The notes beneath the pieces are model-generated. The model had not been told where the DNA came from. It saw only the letters and a program-made list of their open reading frames with translations, and searched no databases. The translations under genes and the position numbers were made by a program. Below are positions 1-15,907 of a stretch of 64,000 bases of DNA, in pieces. Numbering within the stretch: the stretch's first letter is position 1; each line of letters opens with the position of its first letter. This DNA comes from a candidate division WOR-3 bacterium. Its GTDB lineage: Bacteria; Hydrothermota; Tepidihabitantia; Tepidihabitantales; Tepidihabitantaceae. The DNA is taken from positions 32,001 to 96,000 of the forward strand of contig CBFGJV010000005.1 of assembly GCA_965649205.1 (NCBI GenBank), written 5' to 3'.

Positions 1-2
1 AT

Positions 3-2162
3 CTTACAGATGACATTTTCCCCGGGAAGGACCTCAATTACGGTTACAACCGTCTGGCCGCTAGCATCGGTGGTCCCACACCGTTGTGGAACAGGTTGCG
101 TTACTTTATTTCTACAGAGTATCTGAAGACTGACGATGACCGGGGTTGTCTCTATCGGGTTGACGCTCCGCGGGGAGAGTATGCAGCCGAGGGTAAACTG
201 ACCCTGGCCATGCCCAAATCCTTCCCGCTGACGAAAGAAGGGCTGAAACTGACGCTGGACGGGTATCATTCCAACTACCAGTGGCGGACCTATTCGCATA
301 CATACAAGTTCTGGCTCCGGGGTCTTTATGCCAACCGGGTAAGGTCCACCAAGAGCAATCTGACTTTGAACCATATGCTTTCGCCCACCACGGTGTACGA
401 AGCCAAGGCCGGGTTGTTTATGACTTCGCTCATGCGTTCGGTGCGTAACTTCTATGCGGAAGAGGCTGATACCCTTGGCTTCTGGGGCACCATGCGCAAG
501 TTGGGCATCTGGGACAGATATTTCTTCCGCGCCGAGGACTGGGTGTTCAACTGGAAGCGATACTATGACTATGAGATGGCTCATCCGGACAGGTTTGATA
601 CCACCAAGACCCCTCGCAGTATTCAGGATGCGGTATTGAAGCTGTTCCGGTCCTACTGGCTGACGCCGGATTCAGTGATTGTGTACGCTCACCCTGGGGA
701 ACGGAATTTCTTGCAGGGGTATGCGATGATTGACAATCCCTACGGAGTGGCGGGGTTATTCATCACGGAAGGCGACGACCGCTCCTGGCACTATCGGGCG
801 ACGAATCAGTACTACGGGAAAATAGACCTGACCCGTACCATAAACAAGGTGCACGAAATAAAGACGGGCGTGCACATTACGCAGTATTCCATCTCGGTTT
901 ATGAGAATTCTCTGCCTTGGGACCCGAATCCATTCTGGGACGCCTTCAATTACAAACCGCTGGTGGCCGCGGCTTATCTGCAGGACAAGGCTGACTTTGA
1001 AGACTTGGTAGTGCGGGCAGGTTTGAGATTCGACCTGCTTGATTCCAAAGCGAGGGTGAGGGCATTCCCAGAGAGTCTGGGCGCTCGGCCGGAGATTGCG
1101 GACAGCATGCTGCCGGTTCCGGCAAAGTATCGGCTGTCTCCCCGTCTGGGTCTGTCTTACCCCATTACGGAGAGAATCAAGTTCAGGTTTAGCTACGGTC
1201 ACTTCTTCAAGAATCCGACGTTCAGCAATCTCTATACTTATGCAGACAAGAGCGCGGCTGAGCTGCGGGGACGAGGAAACATTGTGGTTGGTAATGCGGA
1301 TATGAGCGCAGAGAAGACGGTGGCCTATGAAATGGGATTTGACGCCCAGCTGTCGGACATATTCCAGTTCGATGTGACTGCTTTCTACAAGGACGTATTT
1401 GACCTTTCGGGCATCAGAACAGTGCAGGCTTTGCCGCAGCCCTATTCTATGTTCTACAATGTGGAGTATGCCCGCATTCAGGGATTTGAGGCGACGATGG
1501 TCAAGGTGCTGTCCGATTACTGGTCGGCCCGCATAGGCTATACCTTCAGCATAGCCAAGGGCACCGCTTCGGACGCCTGGACTCAGTATGGACGCAGCAC
1601 TCCGTACAAGATAGACTACTACCTGGCGCAGGATAAGCGACATTCTTTGAACGGTGATTTGGGATTCTCCTTCCCCTCTGATTTCGCCTTCGTTCCGCTG
1701 CGAGATTTCAACATATCCGGCGTTGCCTCCTATGGCTCGGGCACACCCTACACTCCCACTGATATAAGAGGGCAGCCTACTGGTCCGGAAAATTCCGCCA
1801 GACTGCCGAGCACGTTCAACGTAGACGCCAGGATGTCAAAAGACCTGCGTCTGGGAGGAGTGGCGCTTACGCTTTCCTGCGACGTGACCAATGTGACCAA
1901 CGCTATTCAGATAGTCAATGTGCACTCTGCCACAGGTAAGCCGGATTTCACTGGCAGGATAATTACACCTGCGGAATTCGGCAGCGGCATAGCCTTTGGC
2001 GATTTCTACTACCATCCGGCGCGCGACTATAATCACGACGGATATCTTAGCCGGTTTGAGATGTATCACTCCTATGTGCGAGCCTACAATGACAGAAACA
2101 ATCCTCCGACTTTCTACGGTCCGCCGCGGAAAGTACGGATCGGCGTCAGTCTGTCGTTCTAA
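3..2162 (+). CDS. TonB-dependent outer-membrane receptor, barrel part (5' truncated by window edge)
   Basis: Frame is open from nt 3. Barrel motifs LSPRLGLSYP, FRFSYGHFFKNP, GNADMSAEKTVAYEMG, FDVTAFYKD; C-terminal GPPRKVRIGVSLSF with terminal Phe. Confidence 0.9.
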   Translation, partial: LTDDIFPGKDLNYGYNRLAASIGGPTPLWNRLRYFISTEYLKTDDDRGCLYRVDAPRGEYAAEGKLTLAMPKSFPLTKEGLKLTLDGYHSNYQWRTYSHTYKFWLRGLYANRVRSTKSNLTLNHMLSPTTVYEAKAGLFMTSLMRSVRNFYAEEADTLGFWGTMRKLGIWDRYFFRAEDWVFNWKRYYDYEMAHPDRFDTTKTPRSIQDAVLKLFRSYWLTPDSVIVYAHPGERNFLQGYAMIDNPYGVAGLFITEGDDRSWHYRATNQYYGKIDLTRTINKVHEIKTGVHITQYSISVYENSLPWDPNPFWDAFNYKPLVAAAYLQDKADFEDLVVRAGLRFDLLDSKARVRAFPESLGARPEIADSMLPVPAKYRLSPRLGLSYPITERIKFRFSYGHFFKNPTFSNLYTYADKSAAELRGRGNIVVGNADMSAEKTVAYEMGFDAQLSDIFQFDVTAFYKDVFDLSGIRTVQALPQPYSMFYNVEYARIQGFEATMVKVLSDYWSARIGYTFSIAKGTASDAWTQYGRSTPYKIDYYLAQDKRHSLNGDLGFSFPSDFAFVPLRDFNISGVASYGSGTPYTPTDIRGQPTGPENSARLPSTFNVDARMSKDLRLGGVALTLSCDVTNVTNAIQIVNVHSATGKPDFTGRIITPAEFGSGIAFGDFYYHPARDYNHDGYLSRFEMYHSYVRAYNDRNNPPTFYGPPRKVRIGVSLSF

Positions 2163-2172
2163 GGAGGCATAA

Positions 2173-5043
2173 ATGAGAAATATGAACAACAAATACAGGG
2201 TCGGAATGAGTCTCTTGCTACTTCTGGTGTTTGCCGGCAGCGTGCTGGCTGCCACTGCCACACCACCGCCTCCGCCCAAGCGGGTGTACGATATGAAGTG
2301 GCTGAATATCAATAAGTGGAGGTGTCCGTTCTACAACGATGGCCGGTACGGAATTGACGTAACCCGCGGTTCCGGCGCGGCCGGAGGCTCCTGGCCTCAG
2401 CCCTTCAAGAATATGTACATATTCGGTGCGGGTATGTGGTTTGGCAGTTTGAAGCCGCGCGGGGAAAGGGTGGATACGCTGGTTACCTTTGGTTACAACC
2501 CGAACTCGGGTGGCACGGAGATGACTCCCACAGCTGCCGCCTACGCGGACGAGGGGGCGGGCAATCCTCTGGACCGGATTTACGTCTTCCCCAACGACTG
2601 GCCGCCACCGCAGAGCCGCTTCGGCACAGATACTTCCCTGGTGCCGCAGGAGAACTTCTCCTTGCAGGATATGTGGTGTGTTTACTGCGACCTGGGCAAG
2701 GAGAATCACATCGCTCCGGGCTATCCGCAGGGAGTAGAGTTCTATCAGACAATCTACGCTTGGAATTATCCGGCCAATCAGGACATATTCTTCATCGTGT
2801 ATAAGGTGCGCAATGTGAGTAACGACACGCTGAAGAATTGCTATATTGGCGCCCTGATGGACCCGGATATCGGTGACCATACGGATGATATGGTGGGTCT
2901 GCTGCTGAATGATTTGGTGCCAGGCGTACCTGATACCGTGAAAAATGTCGGTTACGTGGGCGACAACAACAATCAGGAAAACCCGGGCGAAACCTGGGAA
3001 CAGGGCACGCCGGGAGTGGTTGCCTACAAGTTTCTTGAGTCTCCGCGCGGACCGGACGGACGCCAGCTGGGTATGACCGCGTTCAAGAAGTTTACGATTG
3101 ACATTGACCCGGTTACAGACCCGGCCCAGTATCTGACTATGGCAGGTTACGACTATCGAACCGGCGTAAAGTCTCCTTATGACTCGGTTGATGGAGCTCC
3201 TGCAGACAAACGTTTTATTCAGTGTTCTGGGCCGTTCAATCTGGCCCCGGGGCAGGTGGAAGTTTTGATTGTAGCAACGATTGCCGCACCTTACGGCGGG
3301 CCTGGTCAGAGTTGGGAAGAGCGACGGGCTACTCCGGAATCCCTGGTACATCTGGCGAGAACGGCCAATAACGCGCAGTTTATCTATGACCAGGGCTGGT
3401 TGTTGCCCGGGCCGCCGGCTTCGCCCAATATCACCTTGATACCCGGAGACAACTCGGTGCGGATTGTCTGGGATAATCTGTCGGAAATAACCCCAGACCC
3501 GTACTACGAGAAGGTGGCTTCCAAACCGTGGCCCAGCCCGGGACACGACCCAATGTACAAGGCCTACGATTTTCAGGGTTACATCGTGTACAAGTCCCGG
3601 AACGGCTCGGACTGGAGCATTTTGGCGCAGTGCGACCGCATAGACTCAATCATGTTTAAGTATCCGCCAGCCGGAGACAGCGCGACTCCGGAGAGTCTGT
3701 GGATACAGGCGACGGATAAGGGAGTATTCTACTCAGTAGAGGATAAGAATGTCATAAATGGTTACACGTATTACTACTGCGTAACCGCATACGACTGGAA
3801 TTATGTAACAACGGACTGGGATACGACCCAGACTCCGCCCAGACCCAAGGCTTGGGATACTCTTATTTTGCGTTCGGGGATTGTGGCTAACTATTCCACT
3901 GTGCCGCGCTGGCACGCGGCGAACTACGAAAATCCTTTAACCAGAGTTGACATCCTGGCGGGAAATCCGGATACGTTGACGCAGGGGCTCAAACTTTCCA
4001 GTTCCGTAGTTATACCTTACAAGGTTACCGCAGACACCTACGAGATACGCTTCCTGGACCCGGTTTATATTACCGCGTCAAAGTACAGGTGCCGCTATGT
4101 GGTGACGAACATATCAAAAGACAGTGTAGTGCTGGATACTACCGGATTTGATTACACGGTAGGAACAACGGTGGCGTTTTCTCTGCCGGTGTATAACGGG
4201 CAGGAAACCAAGTTGAGATTGTCATATACTGCACCGACCCAACCGTTTGACGACGCTACAGTTGAAACTGGTACTTATCCCAAAGAGCGGGTTAGGCCGG
4301 TAAGGGTGAGCGCGGGCGAACAGAAGGCGTTGTGGTGTTTCACGGGCGCTGATTACCGGATAGAATGGATAACGCTCAGCACGGGTAAATTGAGTGCCAG
4401 AATAACAGATGTGCATACCGGGCGCGTGCTACCCTTCACCCGTTACGACACCAGACAGGCGGCGGACGCAAATGGCTGGTGTTTTGTGAACCGGGTAGCG
4501 CAGAGACCCAATGATACGTTGACGACCGGAGCGGCTCTCATCTATATCTGCGGCGGATATGTGGCGATGAACTACACCGGCACTGTCGGCGATTCCATCG
4601 GCGGGCTCATAAGCGAGATAAAGGACGGTGACGTGTGGATGGTTACCGGTCACAAGGCGCAGAAGACGGCCGGTCATTACAATGTGTTCCAGCTGATATC
4701 CAAGCCGGGTGGGGAAAAGACTACGCGAGTTGATTCTCTCAAGGTCAAAGTCGTGCCTAATCCCTACATCGTGTTCAACCAGTGGGAGAAGAGTTCTGAC
4801 GACCGTAAGATCAAGTTCACCCATCTGCCTATGACTTGCACGATTCGGATTTTCACCCTTTCCGGTGACTTGGTGAAGGTGATAGAGCACAAGGATGACC
4901 CGAATGCGCCTCTGGACCGGGGAGGAACCGCCAGCTGGGATCTGTTGAATGACAACTCACAGCTCATTGCCTCAGGCGTGTATGTGTACCACGTCACGTC
5001 TGATGTGGGCGATTACACCGGCAAGTTTGTGGTCATCCACTAG
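2173..5043 (+). CDS. Secreted 956-aa protein with FN3-like domain and C-terminal T9SS-A/FlgD-Ig-like sorting domain
   Basis: SD AAGGAGG; signal peptide then a PPPPP linker; FN3-like segment (VRIVWDN...GYIVYKS...YYYCVTAYD); C-terminus VVPNPY...IRIFTLSGDLVK...WDLLN...ASGVYVYHV...KFVVIH. Confidence 0.8.
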   Translation: MRNMNNKYRVGMSLLLLLVFAGSVLAATATPPPPPKRVYDMKWLNINKWRCPFYNDGRYGIDVTRGSGAAGGSWPQPFKNMYIFGAGMWFGSLKPRGERVDTLVTFGYNPNSGGTEMTPTAAAYADEGAGNPLDRIYVFPNDWPPPQSRFGTDTSLVPQENFSLQDMWCVYCDLGKENHIAPGYPQGVEFYQTIYAWNYPANQDIFFIVYKVRNVSNDTLKNCYIGALMDPDIGDHTDDMVGLLLNDLVPGVPDTVKNVGYVGDNNNQENPGETWEQGTPGVVAYKFLESPRGPDGRQLGMTAFKKFTIDIDPVTDPAQYLTMAGYDYRTGVKSPYDSVDGAPADKRFIQCSGPFNLAPGQVEVLIVATIAAPYGGPGQSWEERRATPESLVHLARTANNAQFIYDQGWLLPGPPASPNITLIPGDNSVRIVWDNLSEITPDPYYEKVASKPWPSPGHDPMYKAYDFQGYIVYKSRNGSDWSILAQCDRIDSIMFKYPPAGDSATPESLWIQATDKGVFYSVEDKNVINGYTYYYCVTAYDWNYVTTDWDTTQTPPRPKAWDTLILRSGIVANYSTVPRWHAANYENPLTRVDILAGNPDTLTQGLKLSSSVVIPYKVTADTYEIRFLDPVYITASKYRCRYVVTNISKDSVVLDTTGFDYTVGTTVAFSLPVYNGQETKLRLSYTAPTQPFDDATVETGTYPKERVRPVRVSAGEQKALWCFTGADYRIEWITLSTGKLSARITDVHTGRVLPFTRYDTRQAADANGWCFVNRVAQRPNDTLTTGAALIYICGGYVAMNYTGTVGDSIGGLISEIKDGDVWMVTGHKAQKTAGHYNVFQLISKPGGEKTTRVDSLKVKVVPNPYIVFNQWEKSSDDRKIKFTHLPMTCTIRIFTLSGDLVKVIEHKDDPNAPLDRGGTASWDLLNDNSQLIASGVYVYHVTSDVGDYTGKFVVIH

Positions 5044-5059
5044 AGGAACGGAGGAAAAG

Positions 5060-6124
5060 ATGAAAACAACCAATAACACTTTTCCGGTGAGACTGCTGGT
5101 AGTGTCCCTGCTGGTGCTAATGACTGCGTCGGTAGGGCTGGCAGCGTTTTCCAAGGTGGGTACGACAGGCGCGGCGTTTCTGAAGATAGGCGTGGGCAGA
5201 GCGACGGCAATGGGAGAGGCCTTCACGGCCATTGCCGACGACGCCTCAGCCTGTTACTTCAACCCGGCCGGTCTGGCGCACACCGTCCGGCAGGTGCAGT
5301 TCAATCACGCGGACTGGATTGCGGACATAAACCACGACCATCTGGCTGTGGTGCTGCCCTGGACCAATTTCGGCACGCTGAGTTTCGCGGTTACGGCCCT
5401 GTCTATGGGAGATATGGAGCAGACTACCGTAGATAATCCGTCAACCCGGGCACGCGAAGACGAAGGCACAGGGCTGAAATTCGGCGCGGCAGACTTTGCG
5501 GTGGGCGTTTCCTATGCCCGTATCATCACAGACAAACTGTCCTTTGGCTTTACGGCCCGGGCGGTACAGCAGACCATATGGGATATGTCCGCCAGCGCCC
5601 TGGGGGTGGATTTCGGACTCTATTACAACACCGGATTCCGCTCGCTGCGTATCGGCGCCACTGTATCCAATTTCGGCACCCAGCTGGCGTTCACCGGTCG
5701 GCAGCTGGAGTACGGGTTCACCTGGCCGGGTGATTCCGGACCACCGGGTCTGCGCGGCAGCTATCGTACGGACGCAATGCCTCTGCCGACTGTGTTCCGG
5801 TTCGGGATTGCGTATGACCTGATGGATACGGAGCAGAGCAAACTGACGGCGGCAGTGGACCTGACTCATCCCTCGGACATAAACGAGACGGTAAACTTCG
5901 GGTTGGAGTATGGTTACTCAAATCTGTTTTTCCTGCGGGGCGGATATATACTGAATGTGGATCAGGAGTATGCCGAGAAGGTCGGTCGGATTTCCGGGCT
6001 TACGGCCGGCTGCGGAGTGAAGGCAGAGCCGACCCAAGGTCTGAAGCTCGGCCTGGATTATTCCTTCCGCTTTCTCAAGTATCTGAGGCCCACGCATCGG
6101 GTGCAGTTGACTGTAGGTTTCTAG
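5060..6124 (+). CDS. PorV/PorQ-family (UPF0164/FadL-like) outer-membrane beta-barrel
   Basis: ATG 5060 after GGAGG; signal peptide; GTTGAAFLKIGVGRATAMGEAFTAIADDASACYFNPAGL is the typical N-terminal motif; ends HRVQLTVGF. Confidence 0.85.
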   Translation: MKTTNNTFPVRLLVVSLLVLMTASVGLAAFSKVGTTGAAFLKIGVGRATAMGEAFTAIADDASACYFNPAGLAHTVRQVQFNHADWIADINHDHLAVVLPWTNFGTLSFAVTALSMGDMEQTTVDNPSTRAREDEGTGLKFGAADFAVGVSYARIITDKLSFGFTARAVQQTIWDMSASALGVDFGLYYNTGFRSLRIGATVSNFGTQLAFTGRQLEYGFTWPGDSGPPGLRGSYRTDAMPLPTVFRFGIAYDLMDTEQSKLTAAVDLTHPSDINETVNFGLEYGYSNLFFLRGGYILNVDQEYAEKVGRISGLTAGCGVKAEPTQGLKLGLDYSFRFLKYLRPTHRVQLTVGF

Positions 6125-6147
6125 CTCTAATTTCGTGAAGGCAGTAG

Positions 6148-6180
6148 CAGCAGGAGCCCGGCTGGGCTCCTGCTGTCTTC
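6148..6180 (+). terminator. GC-rich hairpin, probable intrinsic terminator or mRNA stabiliser after the PorV-like gene
   Basis: CAGCAGGAGCCC-GGCT-GGGCTCCTGCTG: perfect 12-bp stem, but only a weak U tract (TCTTC). Confidence 0.65.
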
Positions 6181-6207: not shown

Positions 6208-8400
6208 ATGAATTACTCACGACAGTTTGGTTCTGAGTCCAGGCAGGGGAAAGTAATCAGGAGGCGGAACTGGACAGTGTTCGTATTCTTGTTCTTGGTG
6301 CTGGGAGGATGGGCGAGTCTGGTGCGGGCTGCACAGTGGACCGTAGGTATTTATATGTGTGCGGATAACGGTATGAATGACCAGGCCTACGAAGACTTGG
6401 CAGAGATGAAACAGATAGGCTCTTCAAACGAGGTCAATATCATTGTGCAGGTGGACAATGCTGCCAGAGATTCCCATCCCGGTTGCCGCCGCTACCGGAT
6501 AAGAAAGAACGGGCTGGAGTTGCTTGCCGACCTGGGCGAAGTGGATATGGCTGATACGGCAACGCTTATCGGGTTTGGGCGATTTTTGGCCCAGAAGTTT
6601 CCGGCCGACAAATACTTTCTTGTACTCTGGGATCATGGCAGCGGCTGGCACGAAGGTACGGGCAGGACGGACTGGATATTTCAGGATGAAACGCCTGTTT
6701 TCCGAACAATGGGCGTGGCAGGAGGAGAGCTGGCCGCGGCAGTGGCTTCCATCAAGAGAATACTGGGCAAAAGAATTGCCATACTGGGGTTTGACGCCTG
6801 TCTTATGGGTATGATGGAAGTGGCCACAGAGGTGCTGGGAGGGTGCGATTATATGTTGGGCTCAGAAGGGCTGGTGCCGTGGGGAGGTTGGCCCTATGAC
6901 AAGATACTGGAACTTCTGGTCGCAAGTCCTGTTTCCACCCCAGAGGAAGTGCTACCCGCGGTGTGCGCGGCCTATGTGGAAGCATATCCGGGTGAGGATG
7001 TGTGTCTTTCTGCTTTGAATATGCGGCAGCTTACGAGAGTGCTGTCTGCCTGTCGGAGAGTGCTGCAGGACAGTCTGGACATTTCCCGGTCAGAACTGCG
7101 AACAGCGCGGCAGCAGGTACAGACATTTCCGCTGGAGCCGGGCCACAGGCCGGTTCCTGCCGATGACCATATTGATTTTGGCCATTTCTGGCAACTGGGG
7201 GCAGAGTTGCCCGGCGTTCGGTCTCTGCGGATGGCGCTTGCGCCTCTGGTGGTGGCAGAGAGCAGTCAGGCCGGTTTTGACCGGGCGCAGGGAGCCGCAG
7301 TGTGGTTTCCTGACAACTACCTGGCGTTCAAGGCCGCAGCCAGGGCCTATGCTCGGTTGGCTTTTGCCGATTCCGTGCCGTGGCTGGAGTTTCTGAATGC
7401 GTATTTTGCTCTGGATGATGTGAAACCGACGCAGCCGGCTTTCACCCATTCCCGCCTAAGCAGAAAGAGGGATTTGCAGTTGTGGTGGAGTTCGGCCTGG
7501 GACCTGGCACCGGTGACATACACCCTGTACGAGTTTGACCGGGCAGAAGAGATGTTTTCTGATTACTGCGAGGATATGAACAACTGGAGCGCAGGAGGTT
7601 GGACGACCAGCAGCCGATATGTCCGTTCGGCCGCAAACTCCTTTTTTTCCGGGTCAGCTTCCAATCTGGATAACAGGCTGGTTCTGCTTGCGCCGTTGGA
7701 ACTAAGTCAGGGCGGTCTCCTTTCTTTTTTCGCCTTGTTTCAGACAGAAGAAGCGTTTGATTCTGCGGGGAGAATCAGACGGGACGTCTGCGTGTGTGAA
7801 TGGTCCGGAGACCGTATACACTGGTCGGTGCTGGATTCGTTCTACGGTTCGTCTCTTTCCTGGCAGGAGCGTCGCTATGTGCTACCCGCCTGTTCCAGTC
7901 TGTATCTGCGCTTTCGGTATGTCACCAATGGCAGCATCAATGGTCTGGGCGTTTTTCTGGAAGACATAAAGGTGTACCGGTTTGGCGAGTCCAGGATGGT
8001 AGCTGGTGGGGTGCGGGACACCTTTTTCCGTCTGTTCAATCTGAAACAGGGTACGCATAATTTCGTTGTGACAGCCCGGGACAGCTTCGGTAATGTTTCC
8101 CTGGCCAGCTATGCGCGGCAGGTGGAGGTGGCAGACTACGCCGAGCCTTACACCAGGCCGGCTCCGTTTTCCGGGGCGTGCCAGCTGGTACTGGACTTTC
8201 CGGCCGATGAAACTGTGGACGTCACCATACATACTGTCTCCGGTACGCCAGTCAGACGTTTTGACAGAGTTACCGAACGGCTGCTGGCCTGGGATGGCCG
8301 CAATCAGGCGGGCAGGGAATTAGCTGACGGAATGTACCTGGTGGTTGTAGAGGGAAAGAGTTTCCGCCAAGTGGGCAGAATCGCCAAGGTGGCGAGGTAG
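6208..8400 (+). CDS. Clostripain-family (C11) cysteine peptidase with jelly-roll/FN3 domains and FlgD-like CTD
   Basis: WTVGIYMCADN, LVLWDHGSGW (catalytic His), ILGFDACLMG (catalytic Cys); C-terminal WDGRNQAGRELADGMYLV. Start uncertain. Confidence 0.85.
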   Translation: MNYSRQFGSESRQGKVIRRRNWTVFVFLFLVLGGWASLVRAAQWTVGIYMCADNGMNDQAYEDLAEMKQIGSSNEVNIIVQVDNAARDSHPGCRRYRIRKNGLELLADLGEVDMADTATLIGFGRFLAQKFPADKYFLVLWDHGSGWHEGTGRTDWIFQDETPVFRTMGVAGGELAAAVASIKRILGKRIAILGFDACLMGMMEVATEVLGGCDYMLGSEGLVPWGGWPYDKILELLVASPVSTPEEVLPAVCAAYVEAYPGEDVCLSALNMRQLTRVLSACRRVLQDSLDISRSELRTARQQVQTFPLEPGHRPVPADDHIDFGHFWQLGAELPGVRSLRMALAPLVVAESSQAGFDRAQGAAVWFPDNYLAFKAAARAYARLAFADSVPWLEFLNAYFALDDVKPTQPAFTHSRLSRKRDLQLWWSSAWDLAPVTYTLYEFDRAEEMFSDYCEDMNNWSAGGWTTSSRYVRSAANSFFSGSASNLDNRLVLLAPLELSQGGLLSFFALFQTEEAFDSAGRIRRDVCVCEWSGDRIHWSVLDSFYGSSLSWQERRYVLPACSSLYLRFRYVTNGSINGLGVFLEDIKVYRFGESRMVAGGVRDTFFRLFNLKQGTHNFVVTARDSFGNVSLASYARQVEVADYAEPYTRPAPFSGACQLVLDFPADETVDVTIHTVSGTPVRRFDRVTERLLAWDGRNQAGRELADGMYLVVVEGKSFRQVGRIAKVAR

Positions 8401-13183: not shown

Positions 13184-15907
13184 TCAGCGTTCGAGAATCA
13201 GTTTCCGGGTGGCGGTGAAGTTATTGGCCTCCATCCGTATGAGATACACTCCCGGGCTCAGTATCTGTCCGTTATAGCCGCGGCCATCCCATATTGTCTG
13301 GTGAAAACCTGCTGGTAAAACGCCCAGCCCGATTTCCCGCAGCAGAATTCCTGTTGCGGAGTAGACGCATAGGCGCACACGGGCCTGTTCAGGCAGGCCG
13401 AACCGGATGCGGGCTGAGCCGAGGACAGGATTGGGGTGCGGTTTTTCCAGAGAAAATCTTAAAGGCCGGGCCGGGTTTTCTTCAATGCCGGTCAGCGGAA
13501 CTACTTCAACCGAGTCGGTGAGAAAGTCGTTGGCGGGTGCGGTATCGCCGGCGACCGCAGTGGAGCAGCGCACCAGATAGGTGCCGATCGAATCTGCAGC
13601 CCAGGGCCGATAGGATACGGTGCTGTTCATACCGGCCAGTACTAGCACAGTCTGAGTGTCTAGGTAAGTGGTACCAATGCGGAACCAAGTGAAGACCTCT
13701 TCGTCCTGGGTGCCGAGATTGTGTATGGTGGCAGAGGGGAAGACGACAGAACCGGAGTCTATGCGTCCGGTCGGCGCCAGAATGGCGGTTACGGCTATGT
13801 CTTTGGGCGGGCCGGTGCGGACTTCGATGTCGCCGGTGAGTGCCCAGGCAAACCATTGTTTCTGCGCGGTGCGCACATTCTGACCATATACTTTGATTGT
13901 CCAGTAGCCGGTATCAGGAGAGTTTACCCGCACGCATTCTTCCACATTGAGCGAGTCCCAGGCAGAAGGATTCGGCGTGGACTGGCCGCCGCTATACTGG
14001 TTTCCCCGGTAGGAGACACCCGCAGGAGAAATCATTTCCAGATTCAGGTTGTTTACCAGAGTAGGGTTGGCATTGGGAGCGGCGGCGGTGTCGGTCCAGG
14101 CCAGACACACCCGCAGGGGAATTGCCGAGTTTACCTTGAAGCGAGCTTCTTTGTATTCACCGGTGGCGAGTCCGAACGTGTCGTCCACCAGCAGCAGTTT
14201 GCGACTGTCGCCAGGGAAATAGAGCACCGAATCAACATCTACCCGACCCCAGCCGATGTCAAAACTGGGGATGGTGTAGGAGCCGACATTGGGGTCGGCG
14301 GATACCTGAGCCATAGCGCGGAGAAGGGCGGCGGAGTTGTAGTTGAGCTTCTGATGGGGTTCGGGTGTGCCGGACGGGTAGTATCCTTCTTGCAGGTAGC
14401 AGCGCATCAAACCGACTGCGCCGTTGACGCTGGGCGTGGCCATCGAGGTGCCAGACATTTTGGAATAGCCGTTGGTGGAAGGTGCGGCCTGGGCCGAGTT
14501 CAGGTCCACGCCGGTGGCCATCACGTTGGGTTTGATTCTTCCATCCTGGGTCGGACCCCGGGAGGAGAAGCTGGCAATGGTATTGGAGCCGGTGCCGTTG
14601 TTGGTAGCGCCTACCGTCAGCACGTTCTTGGCGATGCCGGGATTGCGCAGACGACGGGCAGAAGATTCGTTGCCCGCGGCCATTATGTTCAAGAAGTCTT
14701 TGTGCGCCCAGCAATACGCATCAGTGGAAGCGTCCTGTAGCAGATAGGTTCCGGAGGAGTTGGAATAGCCCCAGGAGCCGGACGCCTGCCATACAGGCCG
14801 AAGAGAATCGGGCAGGCCGCGGCCCAGATGCACTGTGTCCCATACCGGGTAGAGGTCGGCGCTGACTACGAAGCTGGTGCCGTTGGTCAGGTCCACAAAG
14901 TAAAGTCGGGCATCCTTGGCTATGCCGTCGTAGAAGCTGGTACCACCGGTGAGCGAGTCGTTGCCGGCTACAGTGCCTGCAACGTGGGAGCCGTGGTACT
15001 GGCCTTCACTGGCATCAGCAGTTCCGTATTTCTTGTAGGCAACCACTTTGCGGTGGTCAGGCCAGATGCCGGGCGGGGTTACAGGTCTAGCCGGGTCGCG
15101 GAACATATCGTGGCCGGTATTCAGACCGGTGTCGTGGACAGAGAGAATTACACCTTGACCCCGCACTCCTTCCTTCCAAGCGCGGCGGGCGGTAAGGCTG
15201 GTGTCCGGGGGTGCTACTGGCTGCCAGCCAGTCTGGGCGACCCACTGAGCGCTGTTGTTGCAGGTGGTTGGTTCGTTCCAGGCCTGAATCCAGAATACTT
15301 CCTGCAGGCGGGCCAGGTCAGGGATTCTTTCGGTGTCCAGCGTAAACTCAACTGTGGTGCCGTACGCGGAGGTCATAACCTGCAGCAACGTGCCGTCTAG
15401 CTCTTCTATTTTGCGGGTGACAGCGGCCGGGTCTTCGGTGGGCGTGACCAAAAGCGAGAAGCGGCGCGTGCCGGCAGTGCCCAAGAGTCCCAGCTCCAGT
15501 TTGTACGCAGGTTGGAACAAGCCGACCCAGTTCACGAACGGCAGGCTGGAGACATACGCTCTTTGGCCAGCGTCAAGTCGGGCAAGCACCGCATACTGGG
15601 GCAGGTAGCCAAAGGTCCTGATACCGGACGCTTCGAGCCGGCGAAACCAGTTCTGTTCAATCGGGCCGGTGAACTGGATTATGCAATACTGACTGCCGGT
15701 TACATCTTCGGCAAGGCGGAGATTGTGGGGAAGGTCTGGTTCGCCTTTCTGGGTGTCTATGACATAACCATTGGAGAAGGAAATAAAGCGGACTTCGCCT
15801 GAAGCGGGGGTGAACCGACGGACAGGCCCCATGTTGTAGTGACTTGCCGGCAAAGCCAGGGCTGGCACAGACGCCAGCAGGAGCAGAAACGCAGTTACAT
15901 ATCTCAC
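13184..15907 (-). CDS. Secreted S8 subtilase (KP-43-like) with CARDB-like domain and T9SS-A/FlgD-like CTD
   Basis: Signal peptide; triad VHDTG / YHGSHVAG / GTSMATP; oxyanion AAGN; C-terminal PNP...WDGRG...GVYLIR...RKLILER. Confidence 0.92.
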   Translation of the reverse strand: MRYVTAFLLLLASVPALALPASHYNMGPVRRFTPASGEVRFISFSNGYVIDTQKGEPDLPHNLRLAEDVTGSQYCIIQFTGPIEQNWFRRLEASGIRTFGYLPQYAVLARLDAGQRAYVSSLPFVNWVGLFQPAYKLELGLLGTAGTRRFSLLVTPTEDPAAVTRKIEELDGTLLQVMTSAYGTTVEFTLDTERIPDLARLQEVFWIQAWNEPTTCNNSAQWVAQTGWQPVAPPDTSLTARRAWKEGVRGQGVILSVHDTGLNTGHDMFRDPARPVTPPGIWPDHRKVVAYKKYGTADASEGQYHGSHVAGTVAGNDSLTGGTSFYDGIAKDARLYFVDLTNGTSFVVSADLYPVWDTVHLGRGLPDSLRPVWQASGSWGYSNSSGTYLLQDASTDAYCWAHKDFLNIMAAGNESSARRLRNPGIAKNVLTVGATNNGTGSNTIASFSSRGPTQDGRIKPNVMATGVDLNSAQAAPSTNGYSKMSGTSMATPSVNGAVGLMRCYLQEGYYPSGTPEPHQKLNYNSAALLRAMAQVSADPNVGSYTIPSFDIGWGRVDVDSVLYFPGDSRKLLLVDDTFGLATGEYKEARFKVNSAIPLRVCLAWTDTAAAPNANPTLVNNLNLEMISPAGVSYRGNQYSGGQSTPNPSAWDSLNVEECVRVNSPDTGYWTIKVYGQNVRTAQKQWFAWALTGDIEVRTGPPKDIAVTAILAPTGRIDSGSVVFPSATIHNLGTQDEEVFTWFRIGTTYLDTQTVLVLAGMNSTVSYRPWAADSIGTYLVRCSTAVAGDTAPANDFLTDSVEVVPLTGIEENPARPLRFSLEKPHPNPVLGSARIRFGLPEQARVRLCVYSATGILLREIGLGVLPAGFHQTIWDGRGYNGQILSPGVYLIRMEANNFTATRKLILER

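Follow-up and report, generated by a model that had tools for sequence, protein, structure and literature searches.

What does a transporter gene do in company with a gene for a large secreted protein of no named family and a gene for a small outer-membrane barrel? SusC/SusD defines feeding in Bacteroidota and is the marker by which their utilisation loci are found. The present locus, from a candidate division WOR-3 bacterium, lies in a 97.95% complete genome in which SusD (PF07980) was not found, while a Bacteroides control matched. It encodes a TonB-dependent receptor (TBDR), a 956-aa middle protein and a barrel of the PorV/PorQ family, all in the same orientation (plus strand) in the ORF list. 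We propose, with a probability of about 0.57, that this triad is a SusD-free uptake unit whose partner protein would be tethered through its C-terminal domain (CTD) in the style of PorZ-PorQ, and we infer the binding by analogy.

The locus and its transporter

The window, that is, the whole stretch of 64,000 nucleotides that was analysed, opens inside the TBDR gene. The features that bear on the question are the following:

1..2162, plus strand: TBDR, 3' part (719 aa of 965 aa), from the ORF and PF00593, PF07715 and PF13620
2025..2060, plus strand: EF-hand-like DxNxDG...E motif and helix in the predicted last extracellular loop of the TBDR, by pattern match
2173..5043, plus strand: middle protein, 956 aa, an ORF of no named family and with no Pfam match
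2281..3405, plus strand: N-domain of the middle protein, residues 37-411, beta-supersandwich and linker helix, by VIA-align
3406..3927, plus strand: residues 412-585, predicted to be FN3-like and carrying a conserved aromatic insertion, by strand pattern and Foldseek
4726..5040, plus strand: CTD of a distinct subclass, starting VVPNPY, a relative of T9SS CTDs, those of PorZ/PorU being closest
5060..6124, plus strand: PorV/PorQ-family barrel, 354 aa, NF033709 211 bits, of the group found with such triads
6148-6159/6164-6175, plus strand: perfect 12-bp, G+C-rich stem of a hairpin (6148..6175) with a poor U-tract
6208..8400, plus strand: C11 clostripain-family peptidase with an ordinary FlgD-type CTD, PF03415 138 bits

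The ORF coordinates leave 10 nt between the TBDR and middle genes and 16 nt between the middle and barrel genes, and the SD sequences AGGAGG and GGAGG precede the second and third starts, which bears out the layout of three closely spaced, co-oriented genes given in a preliminary description of this DNA. The TBDR gene begins 735 nt ahead of the window, at G000:C5:31265, and encodes 965 aa at full length. Nine nucleotides upstream of it ends a gene for a 337-aa lipoprotein (G000:C5:30242-31255) with an SD of its own. The unit at this locus is thus a quartet of lipoprotein, TBDR, middle protein and barrel, and a second quartet is present in the same genome. Upstream of the lipoprotein gene there are three sigma-70-like sites, but the 7 sites of the region as a whole are no more than chance gives (shuffled mean 6.0).

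The 12-bp hairpin behind the barrel gene had been taken to close the triad. The stem is indeed perfect, and the folding energy of the 86 nt between the genes is -40.1 kcal/mol (z -3.15), a value reached by 1 of 200 shuffles. However, only TCTTC stands 3' of the hairpin, the co-oriented clostripain (C11) gene begins 32 nt later, and several relatives have a C11 ORF that overlaps the barrel stop codon; the hairpin is therefore probably no hard operon end. We rejected operon closure on these grounds and consider an RNA-stabilising stem or a leaky terminator likely. In the WOR-3 sample a C11 gene follows 27 of 58 triad barrels, and it is a frequent fifth gene in WOR-3.

The assignment of the first gene as a TBDR is confirmed by scores above cut-off for PF00593 (92 bits), PF07715 (37) and PF13620 (71). 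The protein consists of a signal peptide, a CarboxypepD_reg domain, a plug, a barrel and a C-terminal Phe, the last of which is shared by 86 of 98 relatives. It is not a member of the SusC/RagA family (TIGR04056), on which it reaches 54 bits against a cut-off of 368 and matches with its N-terminal part only. Judging by its pattern, the EF-hand-like loop motif may bind calcium. The pattern occurs in 33 of 36 TBDRs of a WOR-3-rich set versus 1 of 29 from other phyla, and the loop was rejected as a family-wide docking site on the latter count. Two TBDRs of the same type stand in this genome without an adjoining middle or barrel gene, which suggests that the transporter may function by itself or with partners from elsewhere. 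One of the two is 78.6% identical to the TBDR of the window and heads a sugar-oxidoreductase operon.

The middle protein and its tail

The middle protein is built of a signal peptide (judged by eye) without a lipobox, a beta-supersandwich, an FN3-like domain, variable beta domains and the CTD. It had been described as a secreted non-lipoprotein, which agrees with this build; only 2 of 98 relatives carry a lipobox-like pattern. No Pfam match was obtained at E 0.1, including any to SusD, and no PDB match by sequence. The AF2 model (pLDDT 84.4) has a hydrophobic N-terminal helix at residues 5-27 and an all-beta C-terminus.

The fold of residues 37-411, including the linker helix, is that of the N-terminal domains of GH15, GH65, GH94 and GH116 (Z 15-20, about 10% identity), which are non-catalytic, and it is further likened to the galactose-mutarotase-like fold. 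The best match is 9ju0, with a VIA-align Z of 19.8, an rmsd of 3.2, 254 aligned residues and 9% identity. Structural matches stop at residue 411. Unlike the glycoside hydrolases, the modelled protein has no catalytic (alpha/alpha)6 barrel behind the supersandwich, and only beta domains and short helices follow. That the middle protein might be a known stand-alone enzyme, an outcome foreseen in the preliminary description, is not what we found; it has no named family and no catalytic barrel.

It could instead be an enzyme that founds a new family (a lyase, epimerase or hydrolase with the supersandwich fold), held at the surface by the barrel and passing its products to the neighbouring transporter without being a lid. 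Mutarotases use the same fold catalytically, lyases and the GH174 fucanase are among the matches (Z 12-15), and several Asp and Arg are conserved in the N-domain (D166, D173, N214, D230, D232, D345 and R347 being its conserved residues). On the other hand, the wider family has no conserved His (H179 occurs in 35%), the closest folds are the non-catalytic ones named above, and the occurrence of one family beside glycan, peptidoglycan and peptide enzymes suits a binding module of variable specificity better. Secreted stand-alone N-domain proteins, of 428-502 aa and with an ordinary CTD, make up 15 of 146 representatives; they indicate that the N-domain serves some purpose apart from the transporter, as would also be the case for an enzyme or a free scavenger. 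We regard the enzyme as unlikely, though it is the best of the alternatives to a tethered uptake partner.

Residues 412-585 are predicted to be FN3-like from their strand pattern, from Foldseek matches to FN3-chain proteins and from the nearest named Atlas cluster (fn3, at 0.90). Within this domain W433 and D524 are invariant in 99 sequences. The special CTD is found in 77 of 82 long representatives with the FN3-like domain, and the domain does not occur in the stand-alone N-domain proteins.

The tail had been read as a T9SS-A/FlgD-like CTD. The relationship stands, but the type-A and FlgD cut-offs are missed: TIGR04183 gives 15 bits versus 23, and PF18962 and PF13860 give no match at E 0.1. 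The type-B families (TIGR04131/PF13585 and PorP/SprF) likewise show no match at E 0.1 to the middle protein or the barrel. The best named matches of the tail are the CTDs that PorZ and PorU carry. The PorZ model NF052228 reaches 24 of 260 bits, in the CTD only, and the tail profile run against the PDB finds PorU 6za2 at E 0.14 only. The tail profile gives 171 and 124 bits for the two middle proteins of the genome and at most 23 for every other protein. By its profile scores, the CTD is related to type A and constitutes a separate subclass.

The barrel and the joint inheritance of the unit

The third gene product, previously called PorV/PorQ-like, scores 211 bits on NF033709 (PorV/PorQ family, cut-off 90) over model positions 1-326. 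It remains below the equivalog cut-offs of NF033710, NF033711 and NF052325 (73 of 250, 100 of 220 and 81 of 325 bits), and its single sequence gives only chance matches in the PDB. Of the PorQ and PorV models, it is the former that gives triad barrels the higher score, and in a quick tree 44 of them lie on one side of a branch (SH-aLRT 82) from the 8 other PorV-like genes of the genome. As for the machinery, SprA is present (475 bits, above cut-off), as are TonB/ExbBD-like genes; for the PorK/L/M/N motor, a search for GldK gave a weak partial match, and one for GldM gave none in the genome and none in the controls either.

In the mechanism that we propose, the type IX secretion pore (SprA) would export the large protein, whose uncleaved tail would stay in its own barrel, retaining it at the surface; this step is modelled on PorZ/PorQ, PorU/PorV and the type-B cargo/PorP-SprF pairs. 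The beta-supersandwich domain would then capture substrate for the transporter, with which the large protein would make contact in a SusD-like job. The support for both putative contacts, of the CTD with the barrel and of the partner with the TBDR, comes from gene order, trees and analogy.

The preliminary description had named a gene-neighbourhood survey and tree congruence as checks, and both came out in its favour. By tblastn, a TBDR upstream and a barrel downstream accompany the middle gene in 37 of the 45 scorable loci (of 65), and neither neighbour is found in 6 of the 45. The triad is intact in 57 of 60 loci of the WOR-3 phylum, which were picked from the top full-length matches and share some contigs with the 45-locus set. 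As a control for chance, ordinary FlgD-type CTD genes were examined in this genome, and none of 57 lies directly behind a TBDR; both special-tail genes lie between a TBDR and a PorV-like gene. The three trees agree among 36 triads (rho 0.98, 0.90 and 0.92; shuffled maximum 0.38) and among 37 wider triads (rho 0.82, 0.72 and 0.69). For 9 paralogues in one KSB1 genome, rho is 0.76 between TBDR and middle protein (p 0.0006) and 0.68 between middle protein and barrel (p 0.0016). Block duplication of neighbours can also produce congruent trees without any binding. When TBDR residues 141-965 and the FN3-like residues 412-586 were submitted to complex prediction without controls, the score was 0.00 (mark 0.32), which speaks neither for nor against contact. 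Covariation between the proteins, computed as MI with APC on 100 paired rows (effective number 69), was discarded as noise, its positive control within the TBDR having no hairpin pattern.

The special tail recurs within genomes: in five of them, one each of KSB1, Calditrichota, Calditrichia, Neomarinimicrobiota and Bacteroidetes by title, it marks 22, 15, 14, 11 and 5 genes, and it is present in 158 of 301 genomes of a Rhodothermia/Ignavibacteria-type phylum. In the KSB1 genome a TBDR lies within 3 kb of 20 of 21 special-tail genes and a barrel within 3.5 kb of 15, with 5 of the 21 copies counted as having no barrel nearby. The link of the special tail to the transporter is thus tighter than its link to the barrel, and the fact that the gene keeps its TBDR neighbour even without a barrel fits a transporter partner.

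These barrel-less copies would also fit a reading in which the barrel is a private shuttle from SprA only, the protein then being released, or cut and LPS-linked by a PorU-like sortase, and acting as a free scavenger that returns substrate to the transporter. PorV is normally a recycling shuttle as described in PMC12618676, the genome contains a PorU-like sortase gene (382 of 420 bits), and the stand-alone N-domain proteins carry ordinary CTDs. However, the sortase gene is followed by a PorV-like gene of its own, a different paralogue from the triad barrel, and general cargo is thereby provided for. Moreover, there is one barrel per cargo, translationally coupled to it and diversifying with it, which resembles the stoichiometric type-B pairs and PorZ-PorQ, and the nearest named matches of the tail are two CTDs that are not cleaved. 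The shuttle comes next in plausibility and is, in our judgement, improbable.

The upstream lipoprotein tempers the earlier proposal that the partner is held at the surface by its barrel rather than by a lipid, given that such a gene directly precedes the TBDR in 46 of the 55 WOR-3 cases where the latter is full-length. It might be the transporter lid here, with the CTD protein as a peripheral binding or adhesion protein that shares the operon; the non-SusD lids of Bacteroides listed by Price et al. are all lipoproteins (10.1101/2023.03.17.533168). Its Cys32 is nearly invariant in 27 sequences and its structure model is mostly beta, but it is not SusD-like: Pfam gives no SusD-type match, and the fold search gives no clear match (best Z 6.5). 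It also diverges faster than the rest of the unit (18-48% identity to the window copy), and it is missing from KSB1, Calditrichota and Rhodothermia/Ignavibacteria-type loci and from more distant WOR-3 families, in all of which TBDR, middle protein and barrel persist. We consider such a lid very unlikely, and the lipoprotein is likely an accessory of this WOR-3 class, comparable to SusE.

Least probable is that the small barrel never touches the middle protein and instead lets a hydrophobic product pass as a FadL-like channel would. The weak FadL/TodX profile matches (E 0.007 and E 0.01-0.1) are far exceeded by that of the barrel profile to PorV (6h3i_F, E 7.5e-23), 5 of the 8 other PorV-like genes of the genome directly follow a CTD protein, and in one genome the tree of the CTDs is correlated with that of the barrels (rho 0.62, p 0.002).

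Substrate, known systems and significance

The flanks are rich in enzymes. In other phyla the flanking genes (n=76) include 14 for CAZymes/CBM proteins, 3 for LacI/RpiR regulators, 2 for peptidases and 29 without a family, and the middle-protein family adjoins enzymes that act on glycans, on peptidoglycan and on peptides. The substrate varies between copies. A peptide substrate, as suggested earlier from the proteases nearby, fits this lineage, with its C11 genes, and only this one; peptides as the substrate of the whole family were rejected because the flanks elsewhere are mostly carbohydrate-active. For the copy studied here, peptides or glycopeptides freed by the C11 protease are our best guess, about even with a glycan. 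The closely similar TBDR in the sugar-oxidoreductase operon weakens the peptide reading.

Our literature search found no description of such a unit of TBDR, CTD protein and barrel, and each known system resembles it in part. SusC/SusD (RagA/RagB) shares the TBDR with an N-terminal CarboxypepD_reg domain, the coupled gene for a surface partner directly after it, the many paralogues per genome and the flanks with CAZymes, peptidases and LacI-type regulators. In contrast, the triad TBDR lies outside the SusC family, its partner is an all-beta protein of 600-1570 aa with a secretion-type tail, whereas SusD is an alpha-helical lipoprotein, and there is a third gene, the barrel.

In the T9SS attachment complex of Porphyromonas gingivalis, the pairs PorZ-PorQ and PorU-PorV also combine a CTD protein with a PorV/PorQ-family barrel, and it is their CTDs, which are not cleaved as described in PMC10947112, that the triad tail resembles most among named ones. 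They differ in that the triad proteins fall below all equivalog cut-offs, that the triad cargo has neither PorZ propellers nor the PorU C25 domain, and that the triad is linked to a nutrient transporter, occurs in many copies and is no component of the secretion machine.

Type-B cargo with PorP/SprF (SprB-SprF, PG1035-PorP) likewise shows a cargo gene followed by its own barrel gene, with specific pairing and surface anchoring by the barrel according to PMC9143113 and PMC12618676. The triad barrel belongs to the PorV/PorQ family and not to PorP/SprF, its cargo has a tail other than type B, and that cargo is paired with a TBDR. Taken together, uncleaved CTDs held by dedicated barrels have precedents in the accounts of PMC10947112, PMC12365241, PMC9143113 and PMC12618676.

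The non-SusD lids of Bacteroides (BtuG, XusB, DUF4876 and others) in the survey of Price et al. 2023 are similar in that non-SusC transporters have unrelated surface partners encoded adjacently; the available part of that source reports none with a T9SS tail or an anchor barrel.

More broadly, we tentatively suggest, at somewhat less than even odds, that such triads give the FCB superphylum a second general machine for uptake across the outer membrane, parallel to SusCD and possibly older. Its lid, in place of a lipoprotein, would be a protein secreted by the type IX route that bears a sorting tail of a separate class and is clipped to a private PorV-family barrel; with about 20 per genome at most, it would form the core of 'PULs without SusCD' in KSB1, Calditrichota, Marinimicrobia, Ignavibacteria, Rhodothermia and WOR-3. 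The idea is testable because loci can be found with the tail profile by itself, and some species in culture carry relatives of the middle protein, namely Rubrivirga marina (PAP77133.1), Gracilimonas aurantiaca (WP_367731064.1) and Rhodocaloribacter litoris. A further candidate triad is Rmar_1070-1072 of Rhodothermus marinus, listed in the xylan locus of PMC6987092 (Table 1) as a TBDR, a hypothetical CTD protein and another hypothetical protein; Rmar_1071 was not among the best 120 named relatives of either search.

According to PMC12618676, the current view is that one PorV handles all type-A cargo. The triad would add a subclass of sorting tail with its own barrels, contrary to that view, and would join type IX secretion and TonB-dependent uptake, which have been studied apart, in one complex. 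In one survey susCD was scarce in Ignavibacteriales and lacking in Kapabacteria (PMC10576277). Related lineages hold many CAZyme clusters with few or no susCD, and the triad is a concrete candidate to fill this gap. If it is indeed a second uptake machine, it would provide a marker for predicting the nutrient loci of those phyla.

Locus layout and inheritance of the triad

The window (G000:C5:32001-96000) belongs to a host genome, G000, of 2.15 Mb and 97.95% completeness, whose contigs are numbered C. The three genes of the preliminary description, separated by 10 and 16 nt, with SD sequences and a 12-bp hairpin, are all borne out in the sequence. When the reading is extended upstream of the window, the TonB-dependent receptor (TBDR) reaches its full length of 965 aa and is preceded, at a spacing of 9 nt, by a 337-aa lipobox gene, which makes the triad a quartet. 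The U-tract of the hairpin is poor, and a co-oriented clostripain (C11) peptidase gene follows, its product ending in an ordinary FlgD-type tail.

Features in the window and at the paralogous locus:
Window 2173-5043, triad strand: middle protein, 956 aa, secreted, with CTD
Window 5060-6124, triad strand: PorV-like barrel
Window 13184-15907, opposite strand: S8 subtilase with ordinary FlgD-type CTD, linkage to the triad not seen in relatives so far
C1:22282-30311: second, paralogous quartet
C1:30904-36581, directly behind the second quartet: presumed cas2-, cas1- and cas4-like genes and two ORFs of ~635 aa, which we take to resemble a split type V effector

We retrieved 65 loci through alignment of the middle protein, 45 of which carried sufficient DNA on either side. 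The expected gene order was kept in 37 of the 45, with the TBDR immediately upstream and the barrel immediately downstream; six had neither neighbour, one had a tandem second middle gene and one was rearranged. Within the host's phylum some match occurs in 149/151 genomes, many of them weak or partial, and 57 of 60 loci, picked from the top full-length matches and overlapping the 65-locus set, are complete triads (the others being one without TBDR, one orphan and one at a contig edge). In this phylum sample the lipoprotein lies upstream of 46/55 full TBDRs and C11 downstream of 27/58 barrels. As a control, none of the host's 57 ordinary CTD genes follows a TBDR and five precede a PorV-like gene.

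The trees of the three genes, whose congruence had been proposed as a check, agree across 36 complete triads (distance correlations 0.98, 0.90 and 0.92, against a shuffled maximum of 0.38; supported conflicts 2, 1 and 0), and all three separate the two paralogous quartets. For 37 triads from more distant phyla the correlations are 0.82, 0.72 and 0.69 (conflicts 3, 7 and 3), and for nine paralogues in one KSB1 genome 0.76, 0.55 and 0.68 (p at most 0.005). This shows that the triad genes were copied and inherited as a block, while tree agreement alone does not establish binding. One triad titled Cytophagia (L057) is nearly identical to a Calditrichota-titled one (L054), and one of the two records is probably mislabelled or misbinned.

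Tail, barrel and fold of the middle protein

The tail had been described as a T9SS-A/FlgD-like CTD. Its nature as a secretion-type tail stands; its membership of the type-A and FlgD families does not, as it falls under both cut-offs. Among named families it comes closest to the CTDs of PorZ (E 1e-5) and PorU. Judged by profile, the tail is a separate subclass, because the host's two middle proteins score 171 and 124 bits and all other ORFs at most 23, despite 57 ordinary FlgD-type tails.

Tail-profile genes number 22 in a KSB1 genome, 15 in Calditrichota, 14 in Calditrichia, 11 in Neomarinimicrobiota and five in Bacteroidetes (titles as in the records). A match also occurs in 158 of 301 genomes from a sample of the phylum to which the Bacteroidetes-titled genome belongs, with a maximum of at least 15 per genome; we infer that this is the Rhodothermia/Ignavibacteria phylum, since the named relatives of its proteins are Balneolaceae, Rhodothermales and Ignavibacteria. 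Among KSB1 tail-bearing genes of at least 55 bits, a TBDR lies within 3 kb of 20/21 and a barrel within 3.5 kb of 15/21; in the Calditrichia genome, where several loci are frameshifted, the figures are 9/11 and 10/11. Both partners are present in 20/20 Rhodothermia/Ignavibacteria-type loci, hand-picked as best matches on long contigs, a choice that favours typical cases. In genome G155 (L098-L109) several triads are split into short ORFs, a pattern that resembles frameshift errors of long reads more than decay.

The TBDR exceeds the Pfam cut-offs for CarboxypepD_reg, plug and barrel and lies outside the SusC family (54 bits vs a cut-off of 368). The triad barrel belongs to the PorV/PorQ family (211 bits, cut-off 90), falls under the equivalog cut-offs of PorV, PorQ and PorV2, and by profile matches PorV in the PDB (E 7.5e-23). 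In a quick tree with long branches, a branch of modest support (82) separates 44 triad barrels from the host's eight other PorV-like genes.

Private cargo-barrel pairs seem common in the host genome (labels read from sequence except for the PorV and FlgD matches):
G000:C1:44294-56842: operon-like run of CTD protein, PorV-CTD fusion, TPR protein, ExbB, ExbD and TonB, apparently a PorV-like barrel linked with its own TonB motor genes
G000:C30:28-3897: CTD protein, then PorV-like barrel, the latter fused to a C-terminal OmpA-like domain
C20:17407-19925 and C12:19095-21354: CTD protein, then PorV-like barrel

The middle protein has no Pfam family and no solved relative by sequence, and its named close relatives are nearly all 'candidate division WOR-3', which makes WOR-3 the likely affiliation of the host. 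An AlphaFold2 model from 44 sequences (pLDDT 84.4, pTM 0.66) has four regions. Residues 37-411, the N-domain, resemble the beta-supersandwich of GH15, GH65, GH94 and GH116 enzymes, linker helix included (Z 19.8, rmsd 3.2, 254 aligned residues and 9% identity for the best match); the resemblance to mutarotases is weaker (Z 13-14). No catalytic helical barrel follows in the model. Behind the N-domain come a domain that we take as FN3-like from its strand pattern, Foldseek hits and an Atlas neighbour, then variable beta domains and the tail of ~105 aa. In 98 complete triads the middle protein ranges from 665 to 1569 aa.

Stand-alone proteins of ~460 aa, in which the N-domain is joined to an ordinary CTD and identity to the middle protein reaches 47%, are encoded at:
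L029:1311-2699
L142:9331-9999
L072:397-1794

In two relatives such a gene is divergently transcribed from the quartet.

Flanking genes and substrate

We scanned 76 of 90 flanking ORFs, the 14 omitted coming mostly from broken loci. A CAZyme or carbohydrate-binding family was present in 14 of the 76 (GHL10 x3, GH88, GH94, GH2, GH16, GH36-like, heparinase II/III, CBM9 x4 and CBM4/9), next to three LacI/RpiR regulators, two peptidoglycan amidases, six PPIases and two peptidases; 29 had no family at E 1e-9. Other triad loci contain a sugar ABC transporter, or M20 and C10 peptidases. This looks like a general module that has been placed in loci serving different polymers. In L084, L120, L125, L127, L128 and L136 the triad is flanked by a secreted parvulin-type PPIase (480-570 aa), which may act as a chaperone dedicated to the large middle protein.

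The window TBDR has a recent duplicate in the host, 78.6% identical (G000:C6:3093-11815, L138); no counterpart was seen in G134, the only congener searched. The duplicate is without middle or barrel gene; 15 nt downstream lie two ThuA-like genes, three Gfo/Idh/MocA oxidoreductases and a xylose-isomerase-like gene. It has apparently been recruited to sugar catabolism. The peptide substrate suggested earlier thus keeps the C11 linkage of the window copy in its favour, while the duplicate's sugar operon and the carbohydrate-enzyme fold of the N-domain speak against it, leaving peptide and glycan about even.

A proposed partner at the transporter mouth

The host encodes SprA (475 bits), a PorU-like sortase with its own PorV-like gene, and TonB/ExbBD-like genes (read from sequence). 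For a PorK/L/M/N motor, the search gave a weak and partial match to GldK. According to published work, PorZ and PorU retain their CTDs and are anchored by PorQ and PorV (PMC10947112, PMC12365241), and type-B cargo is encoded just upstream of its own barrel, which binds it (PMC9143113, PMC12618676). The triad likewise has a private tail class and a private barrel group, which fits anchoring by the barrel.

We infer a chain, in line with the proposed SusD-analogous system, in which the middle protein would be exported from the cell, retained on the barrel and docked at the TBDR, and would bind substrate; we put the whole chain at slightly better than even (about 0.57). The middle protein's link to the TBDR is tighter than that to the barrel, the host genome has no detectable SusD, and the neighbourhoods are PUL-like, all of which suggests that the protein works at the transporter mouth. 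On the other hand, there are orphan middle genes, solo TBDRs and stand-alone N-domain proteins with ordinary tails (15/146 representatives), and in the host lineage the lipoprotein may be an alternative lid. The lipoprotein is conserved yet fast-diverging; across 27 sequences Cys32 hardly varies. Its model is mostly beta, unlike the helical SusD, and the lipoprotein is absent from all KSB1, Calditrichia and Rhodothermia/Ignavibacteria-type loci surveyed.

The lids that Price et al. describe in the opening third of their text are all lipoproteins (10.1101/2023.03.17.533168). susCD is reported to be rare in Ignavibacteriales clusters and missing from Kapabacteria (PMC10576277), and Melioribacter roseus is reported to have one susCDE operon (PMC3534657), so both systems can coexist. 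In the R. marinus xylan locus (Table 1, PMC6987092) a TBDR gene is followed by genes for two hypothetical proteins, the first of them with a CTD; this is a candidate triad. T9SS, type IX, PorV, Ignavibacter and Rhodotherm are absent from the main text of a 2026 glycoside-transporter review (PMC13543919). In the main texts covered, drawn mostly from outside subscription journals, we found no description of the triad; supplementary locus tables may carry its genes as hypothetical.

The triad is thus real, widespread and multi-copy; as a module of known kinds of parts, arranged in a way that we did not find described, it is a variant of the transporter-plus-surface-partner theme. Should the three proteins form one complex, it would nearly amount to a machine of a new kind.
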